The position numbers were made by a program, and so were the translations under genes. DNA of 64,000 bases from Fibrobacteria bacterium (lineage in GTDB: Bacteria; Fibrobacterota; Fibrobacteria; UBA11236), in NCBI GenBank assembly GCA_017881725.1, contig JADGQO010000135.1, positions 65,807 through 129,806 on the forward strand, given 5' to 3'. Positions 14,618 through 16,562 of the stretch are shown here, piece by piece; position 1 is the stretch's first letter, and the number at the start of each line of letters is the position of its first letter. The notes beneath the pieces are model-generated. The model saw only the letters and a list, made by a program, of their open reading frames with translations, was not told the DNA's origin and searched no databases.

Positions 14618-15073
14618 TTGAAAAAACCAATGACCTACCCTATCATCATGACCCTCTTGGGCTTGGTATCACTGCCTTTTGCGCAATCCCAAGGAAAGGG
14701 AATGATGGGTGGTCAGAAAATGCAAGCCGGCATGATGGATTCCAGCGGATCACATATGATGATGAGTCCGGAAATGAGCAAGCATATGGAGGGCATGATG
14801 CCCCAAATGCGCGGCATGATGGATCAGATGAACGGGATGATGTCGCGAATGGACGTCGTGATGGGGGACAGCACCCTGATGATGAACCACGCGCGCATGA
14901 TGGATGTTTCCAAAATGATGGGCGAGATGTCGAGCAGCATGAAAGAAATGTCCGGCCTGATGGCTAAGGGGAAACCGAATCCCGCCAAGGCGAAAAAAAT
15001 GCATGAGCAACTCGATGCCTTGAATAAAAAACTGGAGATCATGGAAAAAGATTCCGCTCCCGAAAAAAAATGA
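14618..15073 (+). CDS. Secreted methionine-rich protein (about 30% Met; repeated GMM/MMxxM motifs), putative periplasmic Cu(I)-binding or Met-reservoir protein
   Basis: A signal peptide '[24 protein letters not shown]' is followed by '[52 protein letters not shown]...'. The start is either TTG 14618 (AAGGA SD) or ATG 14630. It ends 8 bp before atpD. Confidence 0.6.
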
Positions 15074-15080
15074 AAGTCCA

Positions 15081-16562
15081 ATGTCGAATCGCGGTGTAAT
15101 TGTTTCAGTACGCGGGAGCGTAGTCGATATCCGGTTTGAAGGTCGGTTGCCGCCCATCTATTCCATCCTGCGCACGGGCGAAGGTGGTGCGATCGTCATC
15201 GAAGTGCTGACTCAGCTTGATGACTGCAAGGTGCGGGGGATCGCGCTGACGCCGACCCAGGGATTGGCGCGGGGCATGGCGGTAGAAGATACGGGCGGCC
15301 CGCTCAAGGCTCCGGTCGGGAAAGCGGTCCTCTCGCGCATGTTCGACGTTTTCGGCAAGGTCATCGATCGCGGCGAGCCGCTGAAGGATGTCGAATGGCG
15401 TTCGGTGCATCGCGCCCCGCCGCCTTTGTCGAAGCGATCCACAAAGTCGGAAATCTTCGAGACCGGCATCAAGGTCATCGACGTGCTGGTGCCGTTGGAA
15501 CGCGGAGGCAAGGCGGGCCTCTTCGGTGGGGCGGGTGTGGGGAAGACCGTGCTGCTCACCGAGATGATCCACAATATGATCGGGCACCAGGAAGGCGTGA
15601 GCATCTTCTGCGGGATTGGAGAACGTTGCCGCGAGGGCGAGGAACTTTATCGCGACATGAAGGAAGCGGGCGTTTTACCGAATATGGTGATGCTCTTCGG
15701 ACAAATGAATGAGCCGCCCGGAAGCCGTTTCCGCATCGGTCATGCCGCCTTAACCATGGCCGAATACTTCCGCGACGACGAACATCGCGATGTCCTGCTG
15801 CTTATCGACAATATCTTTCGGTTCATCCAGGCCGGATCGGAAGTATCCGGCCTGCTGGGACGGATGCCGTCACGTCTGGGTTACCAGCCCACCATGGGCA
15901 CCGAGTTGTCGGGATTGGAAGAGCGCATCGCCAATACCGATACCGGCGCCATCACCTCCATTCAGGCCGTCTACGTGCCCGCCGACGATTTCACCGATCC
16001 AGCCGCCGTGCATACCTTCTCGCATCTCTCCGCTTCAATCGTGCTTTCGCGCAAGCGTGCCAGCGAAGGACTGTTTCCCGCCATCGATCCGCTCCAATCC
16101 AGTTCCAAGATGGCCACGCCCGGCATCGTCGGCGAACGTCACTACAACCTGGCGCAGGAGATCCGCCGAACACTCGCCCAGTATGCGGAGCTCAAGGACA
16201 TCATCGCCATGCTCGGACTGGAACAGCTTTCTCCCGAAGACCGCAAGGTGGTCGCGCGCGCGCGCCGGCTGGAACGGTTCCTGACCCAGCCCTTCTTTAC
16301 CACCGAGCAATTCACGGGCATGAAGGGCAAGCTCGTAAGCCTCAAGGATTCCCTGGACGGCTGCGAGCGCATCCTGCACGATGAGTTCAAGGATTTCCCA
16401 GAAAGCGCATTGTACATGATCGGGACCGTTGACGAGGCAAAGAAGCCGGAGAATAAGGAGAACAAGGAGAAGGCTGAAAATACCGACAAGGCCAACAAAT
16501 CAGAGAAAACCGCGAAGTCGGTTCTGGAGGTGCAGCCTGCAGCAGCCGCTCATGAATCTTAA
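15081..16562 (+). CDS. atpD: N-type ATPase F1 beta subunit with about 40-aa Lys/Glu-rich C-terminal tail
   Basis: Walker A '[10 protein letters not shown]' and a 'DELSPEDR'-like region are present. Gene order is atpD first, which is N-ATPase-like. The C-terminus is '[27 protein letters not shown]...'. Confidence 0.95.

Follow-up and report, generated by a model that had tools for sequence, protein, structure and literature searches.

A methionine-zipper protein encoded next to the N-ATPase operon of a Fibrobacteria bacterium: a candidate periplasmic Cu(I)/Ag(I) binder

In a 64,000-nucleotide stretch of the genome of a Fibrobacteria bacterium (contig JADGQO010000135.1, positions 65,807 to 129,806; hereafter the window), an open reading frame (ORF) for a putatively secreted and extremely methionine-rich protein lies directly in front of atpD, the first gene of an N-ATPase operon. 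Is this gene an accessory gene of the ATPase, as a first-pass annotation of the sequence had proposed, or is it a neighbour with a role of its own? Our analysis points to the second answer. The protein belongs to a family with a core of conserved methionines, whose members adjoin copper and silver exporters in other genomes, and on balance we consider it probable that it binds Cu(I)/Ag(I) in the periplasm.

Architecture and conservation of the methionine-rich protein

An exhaustive phmmer search against 1.8 billion representatives recovered 45 proteins at E <= 1e-3 (best E 5e-28, 52% identity), nearly all of them 130-150 amino acids (aa) long and aligned with the query from end to end; a word-indexed homologue search with the single protein gave no match. 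The gene is real and under selection: its orthologue in another Fibrobacteria metagenome-assembled genome (MAG), locus L023, is 74% identical at the protein level, with a ratio of nonsynonymous to synonymous substitution rates (dN/dS) of 0.26, against 0.05 for atpD of the same pair. Met makes up 35 of the 151 residues (23%), 32 of 126 in the mature chain (25%) and 32% of residues 26-120. The genes surrounding N-ATPase operons have 1-4%, so such a content is well above anything that chance would give. The first-pass annotation was right about a 151-aa ORF with a signal-peptide-like N-terminus (recognized here by inspection); its estimate of about 30% Met holds for the core and overstates the mature part as a whole.

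The family comprises about 100 distinct sequences carried by organisms from soil, sediment and groundwater metagenomes, including Nitrospirota MAGs. Its features are a length of 130-150 aa, a signal peptide, a Gly/Gln/Met tail, three heptad helices with Met at the a/d positions, and a ..KG.MDPA.. turn before helix 3. The window protein matches the hidden Markov model (HMM) of the family with an E-value of 5e-36 and keeps all 11 near-invariant Met columns. Neither Pfam nor NCBIfam holds a family model for it, lenient thresholds giving coiled-coil noise only, and a search of the literature on Met-rich periplasmic helical proteins and methionine zippers revealed nothing comparable. The family is therefore apparently undescribed.

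The putative signal peptide has a basic n-region, a hydrophobic h-region and small residues at -3/-1, and an ..AFAQ motif is aligned at this position in nearly all of 29 members. For the remainder of the chain (Table 1), an AlphaFold2 run with the 29-sequence alignment predicted an antiparallel three-helix coiled coil after a disordered tail, with predicted local distance difference test (pLDDT) values of 80-88 in the helices and below 50 over residues 20-49. Met is conserved at 80-89% in tail columns 48, 49 and 53, at 92-99% in helix 1 (positions 60, 64, 68, 71, 75) and at 90-97% in helix 2 (positions 101, 104, 108, 111, 115), while the core of helix 3 is looser (Met 50-83%, with Leu/Ile tolerated). 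Tandem Repeats Finder detected no DNA tandem repeats in the ORF, and there are no peptide tandem repeats either; the GMM/MMxxM/MxGMM "repeats" described earlier are the heptad periodicity of Met. The composition of the mature chain is equally one-sided, with Leu/Ile/Val at only 9 of 127 residues, neither aromatic residues nor Cys, and 32 Met against 4 His (the family mean is about 4 His).

Hydrophobic residues normally interchange freely at the a/d positions of coiled coils. Among 104 distinct members, which share a mean pairwise identity of 44%, the 11 core columns (window positions 60, 64, 68, 71, 75, 82, 101, 104, 108, 111 and 115) are nevertheless 90-99% Met, and Leu/Ile/Val/Phe account for only 1-10%. 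Because the core stays Met where other hydrophobic residues would be expected to replace it, the pattern indicates that methionine itself is under selection, in what may be called a methionine zipper.

Genomic company of the family and its proposed function

To the loci described above, a metagenome scan with an 8-member sub-alignment added 47 further ones (the single protein gave no confirmed match there), and the contexts of 52 distinct members from all loci were pooled. A gene for an outer-membrane barrel (Phenol_MetA_deg-type) lies within 400 nt downstream of 32 of the 52, often after a gap of 2 nt, and a small c-type cytochrome or a TlpA-like redoxin-cytochrome fusion is encoded upstream of 14. 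Within 6 kb, 15 members have a Cu(I) P1B-ATPase and 11 an OEP-CusB-CusA (CusCBA-type) pump; N-ATPase genes accompany only the window member and that of L023. A Pfam count made without preselection over 142 ORFs that flank the gene in 20 long loci was headed by HD_5 (9), OEP (8), cytochrome c (8), the CusB-type fusion protein (7) and YtkA (7), followed by HMBD-P1B-ATPase (5), the barrel protein (5) and PCYCGC (3). Neither ATP-synthase nor methionine sulfoxide reductase (Msr) families were among the 25 commonest.

The exporters themselves carry the marks of soft-metal pumps. The pump adjoining member P0170 matches the CusA/CzcA model with 1127 bits (cut-off 701) and retains M573, M623 and M672 together with seven of the eight relay methionines of E. 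coli CusA, residues whose roles we take to be those assigned in the E. coli structure. This Met triad is also kept at three other loci. The copper theme suspected from the window alone thus recurs elsewhere, and the family occupies the place expected of a periplasmic metallochaperone while having an unusual a/d core.

Members of the window subclade were always found in an island of phosphoketolase (XFP), AckA, PPK2, aldolase, CopA and N-ATPase genes, in varying positions and most often after XFP or the copper pump. Member P0001 (52% identity), the closest outside homologue, directly follows an HMBD P1B-ATPase 81% identical to the window pump, and is succeeded by FtsX, PPK2, YHS and multicopper oxidase genes; P0002 (about 50%) lies between XFP and aldolase, and P0003 (42%) between XFP and an Na_Ca_ex transporter.

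Two further observations concern the family as a whole. It recurrently adjoins an approximately 98-aa PCYCGC/CYCXC "(seleno)protein" (NF041379, below cut-off), HD_5, YtkA-like proteins and SAM methyltransferases (loci L095, L101-L104, L110, L118, L121, L126 and L139), which we regard as an uncharacterised soft-metal or metalloid gene set. Moreover, two paralogues lie a few kb apart or in tandem in L095 (5433-5978 and 7992-8387), L132, L134 and L007.

The three copper-related elements that the first-pass annotation had listed in the window all exist: the CopA-type pump, the YHS protein and the Met/Trp micro-protein. The pump shows the Cu(I) signature, with CPC398 in transmembrane helix (TM) 4, YN706 in TM5 and MSLSS in TM6, and is the putative functional partner of the Met-rich protein. 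The micro-protein consists of a Met/Trp-rich head, GGWMHGWMGGGMW, and one transmembrane helix; in L002, a homologous N-terminus is encoded ahead of the orthologous pump. This small protein may be of a Cu(I) type that uses cation-π and thioether contacts.

These data lead us to favour, as the probable function, the binding of Cu(I)/Ag(I) by thioethers in the periplasm, and to assign the gene to the copper module that a mobile phosphoketolase/N-ATPase island carries. Judging from its signal peptide, the protein would be exported by Sec to the periplasm, where its thioether-rich tail and Met-lined bundle would bind Cu(I) and probably Ag(I). The adjacency to P1B-ATPases suggests that it might buffer the metal, or hand it over, after the pump has delivered it to the periplasm. 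That these metals are bound we infer from the Met-specific conservation, the copper/silver exporters nearby and the way in which Met-rich domains are known to behave (PMC11494321). The module further comprises the CopA-type pump, the YHS protein and the micro-protein. Genes for phosphoketolase, acetate kinase, PPK2, class-I aldolase and the N-ATPase lie in the same island, and a rearrangement within it has probably placed the Met-rich gene directly before atpD.

Several points weigh against this proposal. The structural model is of moderate confidence (mean pLDDT 70, predicted template modelling score 0.50), and metal binding by the family is a prediction from sequence and context. An all-Met buried core could be purely structural, or could serve as a pliable hydrophobic binding surface. 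Methionines at a/d positions of a closed bundle would be poor ligands unless the bundle opens or oligomerises; binding by the buried residues would require one of these, or a row of ions running through the core, as in the Csp copper storage proteins. Furthermore, the window is devoid of the usual partners of the family (outer-membrane barrel, small cytochrome c, HD, PCYCGC and CusCBA), and its pump lies 7.3 kb upstream of the Met-rich gene, with sugar-metabolism genes between them. Finally, the L023 orthologue starts with ATG AAC TAG (L023 3366-3374) so that its third codon is an in-frame stop; the next possible start, TTG 3405, would cost it the signal peptide, and the rest of the ORF is intact. 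This TAG may be an assembly error, or a sign of incipient decay that would make the gene a young pseudogene.

Could the protein instead be a sacrificial antioxidant of the periplasm, in which Met residues scavenge HOCl, H2O2 and copper-driven oxidants and are re-reduced by Msr? The extreme and conserved Met content would suit such an oxidant sink, some members adjoin TlpA/ResA-like thiol-disulfide oxidoreductases and AhpC/TSA proteins, and CusF, a periplasmic copper protein containing Met, is oxidised and repaired by MsrPQ (PMC9302797). However, a strict heptad of Met in a folded core is unnecessary for a scavenger, Msr is missing from the commonest neighbours listed above, and it is metal exporters that dominate the neighbourhoods. 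We therefore consider this role unlikely.

A Spy/CpxP/ZraP-like role, as a stress chaperone or a modulator of signalling whose flexible Met surfaces attach to a sensor kinase or to unfolded proteins of the envelope, would match the size, export and all-helical build of the protein, and ZraP itself binds metal. One Joint Genome Institute record does label member P0008 a "Spy/CpxP family protein refolding chaperone", sub-threshold matches to Pfam Metal_resist (PF13801) occur in 6 of 29 members, and ZraP is among the weak Foldseek matches. On closer inspection these resemblances fade: the PF13801 match, at 13.4 bits, falls short of the cut-off of 29.2, ZraP has E-values of 8-9 in Foldseek, the sequence has no LTxxQ, and hhalign comparison of the family profile gave probabilities of 1.2% for E. 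coli ZraP and 0.1% for CpxP. Such a function strikes us as quite improbable. Neither the oxidant sink, nor the chaperone, nor the ATPase factor considered below fits the distribution of the family as well as metal binding does.

If the binding of Cu(I)/Ag(I) is confirmed, the family would represent a new structural solution for thioether coordination and a useful marker of copper/silver resistance loci. The Met-core bundle is also of interest to protein design.

The junction with atpD and the surrounding island

The Met-rich ORF and atpD (ATG at 15081) are on the same strand, and the spacer between them is one nucleotide shorter than the 8 bp previously reported. As the first-pass annotation had assumed, no terminator-like site was found on the + strand from the ORF to atpD, and the same TGA-N7-ATG arrangement occurs in L023. 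Co-transcription with the N-ATPase operon is thus plausible and, from the layout of the sequence, probable; it would reflect juxtaposition only, and not a functional tie.

The junction is the best argument for a dedicated N-ATPase accessory or assembly factor, acting on or protecting the periplasmic face of the a/c-ring: it is tight and terminator-free, and it is identical in L023 at 75% nucleotide identity (from 14604 onward). We therefore surveyed other N-ATPase operons for an upstream gene of this kind. Using an AtpR alignment as the query, 80 loci were collected from species-representative genomes (AtpD 78-94% identical to that of the window), of which 66 included at least 500 nt upstream of atpD. 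Across all 80, the family HMM matched only L023 (JBDSIO010000176.1), one of the 66, where the gene order is CopA-like, XFP, Met-rich, atpDCQRBEFAG; compared with it, the window has an additional block of aldolase, YHS, mannose-6-phosphate isomerase, phosphomannomutase-like (PMM-like) and GH130 genes between XFP and the Met-rich gene. The three closest operons (AtpD 88-94% identical) are without it. Upstream of atpD stand instead XFP, ending 15 nt before it, in L008/L010 (AtpR identity 70%), a class-I aldolase fragment in L012 (72%) and PPK2, overlapping atpD, in L014 (62%).

The reverse survey gave the same result, since none of the 47 metagenomic family loci contains any N-ATPase gene. Within the window subclade the downstream neighbour varies (aldolase, FtsX/PPK2, Na_Ca_ex transporter or atpD). 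Elsewhere atpD is abutted by XFP, aldolase, PPK2 or a PMM-like HAD gene, with gaps of -4 to 30 nt. As these genes lie equally close to it, the 7-nt junction is not special to the Met-rich gene; the tightness is a property of atpD in the island. The adjacency of the two genes is conserved within one lineage and absent elsewhere.

Comparison with AtpQ and AtpR leads to the same view. Like theirs, the Met-rich gene is small, is read in the same direction as the N-ATPase genes and probably shares their transcription unit. However, AtpQ and AtpR are membrane proteins, whereas the Met-rich protein is predicted to be exported and soluble, and its gene lies outside the atpDCQRBEFAG block by which Dibrova et al. 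defined the operon (PMC2881411). These authors found AtpR in every N-ATPase operon; atpR was likewise present in all 80 loci surveyed here, and the Met-rich gene in 2 of about 70. A dedicated role in the ATPase is largely refuted by this distribution, and we hold it to be very improbable.

A second, unrelated Met-rich protein was encountered in this position of the island, just upstream of atpD in a Tepidisphaerales MAG (L033 2245-2751, + strand, 168 aa, secreted, between YHS and PMM-like HAD genes). It was rejected as a family member (HMM score about 0).

The N-ATPase operon of the window is complete, with AtpQ (ATPase_gene1, PF09527) and AtpR (PF12966) encoded between atpC and atpB, and atpF having a δ-like C-terminus. 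Its c subunit (18298-18579, + strand) has Glu in helix 1 (ALGEGR) and E-S-T-x-x-Y in helix 2 (MIESTAIY), so that the site combines two carboxylates with Ser, Thr and Tyr. Sites of this type were predicted by Dibrova et al. to couple to Na+. However, the N-ATPase c-ring of B. pseudomallei, with a related two-carboxylate site, proved H+-specific when measured (PMC5376962). The ligand set of the window subunit is of a fuller Na+-type than the E-T-M-x-x-Y of that ring. Of the "Na+ N-ATPase" in the first-pass annotation, the N-ATPase therefore stands, and Na+ specificity is a prediction. In addition, the window AtpD (16440-16562) and AtpA (20930-21064) bear low-complexity C-terminal tails rich in Lys, Glu and Asn; AtpD is 493 aa long, compared with 456 in L008.

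The neighbours of the ATPase recur in other bacteria. Within 6 kb on either side of atpR, the 80 loci contain phosphoketolase (23), PPK2 (11), a CopA-like pump (7), acetate kinase (6) and class-I aldolase (5). These flanking genes are 55-87% identical at the protein level in many phyla, and atpD often begins no more than 30 nt after XFP, aldolase or PPK2. We interpret positions 1-21951 of the window as an N-ATPase operon embedded in a widely transferred island. The literature search found no paper linking the N-ATPase with phosphoketolase. The Burkholderia low-oxygen "lxa" locus, considered as a counterpart, is a loose parallel only: the paper on it lists acetate kinase and a cation ATPase, and neither N-ATPase nor phosphoketolase. 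For the N-ATPase field our result is mainly negative, the Met-rich gene being no accessory subunit. Nevertheless, the genes with which the N-ATPase commonly travels, for phosphoketolase, acetate kinase, PPK2 and aldolase, offer a hint of the physiological conditions under which this poorly understood enzyme may operate.

Concerning the gene call itself, exact look-ups in public gene calls, which took in seven frames and starts (TTG, ATG and internal starts, the overlapping +2-frame ORF and both antisense ORFs), retrieved no product from 14332-15080. Since the products of the window's GH130, AtpD, XFP and AtpR genes were all found in the same way, the source annotation has probably missed the Met-rich gene. 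An alternative ATG start lies at 14630, and a His-rich ORF on the opposite strand (14750-15157) simply mirrors the abundance of ATG on this one. The missing call might suggest a chance ORF or such a mirror image, an idea refuted for practical purposes by about 100 homologues that keep length, signal peptide and register, by the dN/dS value, by the in-frame position of 34 of 38 ATG triplets and by the Shine-Dalgarno-like site.

The gap of 286 nt upstream of the gene (14332-14617) has no inverted repeats and no Rfam match, and it is not conserved in L023. A sigma-70-like match at 14618-14646 was discounted as a promoter, because it lies on the start codon and would remove the conserved signal peptide; there is no other such match upstream of the gene. 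The gap also holds a 14-codon mini-ORF, MPIQIQEEINGKAK (14346-14390, + strand), with a strong AAGGAG 5 nt upstream, which may be due to chance or may encode a leader peptide.

Table 1. Position and description of the window features discussed in the text
Feature	Position	Strand	Description	Basis
Met/Trp membrane micro-protein	4925..5050	+	41 aa, MMNNTGGWMHGWMGGGMWTWSPIGVLVAILLVVLVFRLVRR; between ackA and the CopA-type pump	
CopA-type Cu(I) P1B-ATPase	5068..7332	+	N-terminal HMBD	Pfam; TIGR01511, 594 bits (cut-off 397)
YHS-domain protein	11053..11247	+	C-terminal GGCCS	Pfam YHS, E 6e-11
GH130 glycoside hydrolase	13174..14331		Flanks the Met-rich gene	
Shine-Dalgarno-like site	14605..14610	+	AAAGGA, 7 nt ahead of TTG	Read from sequence
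Met-rich ORF	14618..15073	+	151 aa; TTG start, TGA stop at 15071-15073	
Predicted Sec-type signal peptide	14618..14689	+	Residues 1-22/24; MKK, 15-residue hydrophobic stretch, FAQS	Inspection
Met/Gly/Gln/Ser tail	14690..14767	+	Residues 25-50, predicted disordered; GMM, MxxxGMM and HMMM motifs	
Predicted helix 1	14768..14872	+	Residues 51-85; a/d = MMMMMMMM	AlphaFold2, heptads
Predicted helix 2	14888..14968	+	Residues 91-117; a/d = MVMMMMM	AlphaFold2, heptads
Predicted helix 3	14981..15052	+	Residues 122-145; a/d Met or Leu; Lys-rich	AlphaFold2, heptads
Spacer to atpD	15074..15080	+	7 nt, AAGTCCA, terminator-free	Sequence
N-ATPase operon	15081..21951	+	atpD-C-Q-R-B-E-F-A-G, complete	Pfam

Comparison with known metal-binding and helical proteins

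Periplasmic handling of Cu(I) and Ag(I) is known mainly from the enterobacterial proteins CusF, PcoC/CopC, PcoE/SilE and CueO. The methionine-zipper protein is likely, in our opinion, to be a functional analogue of CusF, of PcoE/SilE and of the Met-rich domain of CueO, and a homologue of none of them. With CusF it shares small size, predicted export, a place in or beside CusCBA-type clusters (family members adjoin a CusA with the Met triad kept) and Met thioethers suited to soft metals. The two are, however, unrelated in sequence, hhalign giving a probability of 1.7% with the signal peptide alone aligned. They also differ in build: CusF is a small β-barrel (OB-like) with a Met2-His-Trp site, whereas only helices are predicted for the methionine-zipper protein, which contains about 30 Met and lacks Trp.

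PcoE and SilE are helical multi-site binders of soft metals, thought to buffer the metal before efflux, and they resemble the present protein in their length of about 140 aa, their export and their lack of Cys. They differ in having paired His/Met motifs and in being disordered until metal is bound, while the methionine-zipper protein, with 32 Met and 4 His, has heptads and a predicted bundle. This distinction comes from family-model searches, none of which matched, and from what is known of PcoE and SilE rather than from direct alignment. The MxM, MxxM and GMM clusters of the Met-rich domains of CueO and other multicopper oxidases, and the Mets motifs of PcoC/CopC and Ctr1, are reminiscent of the tail (residues 25-50). 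These are, however, inserts in larger enzymes or transporters, and the methionine-zipper protein is free-standing with most of its Met in a coiled-coil core. The Met-rich domain of CueO recruits Cu(I) (PMC11494321).

A structural parallel is offered by Csp1 and Csp3, helical bundles whose core is lined by a single kind of soft-ligand residue. No homology was detected, and the Csp bundle has four helices lined with Cys, whereas that of the methionine-zipper protein is predicted to have three, lined with Met and free of Cys. The analogy suggests storage of several Cu(I) ions inside the bundle. Taken further, it leads to a more far-reaching view, which we regard as possible and still doubtful: that the family constitutes a new soft-metal class, a thioether-only three-helix zipper that holds several Cu(I)/Ag(I) ions in its core for storage or relay, replaces CusF in many environmental cus-type clusters and is, in addition, wired into the N-ATPase transcription unit of a mobile "energy-survival" island with phosphoketolase, acetate kinase and PPK2. 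Periplasmic Cu(I) buffering would then be co-expressed with ATP-driven ion extrusion in the Fibrobacteria-related lineage, one possible setting being anoxia, when Cu(I) is most toxic, and the methionine zipper would be the Met counterpart of the Cys-lined Csp bundle.

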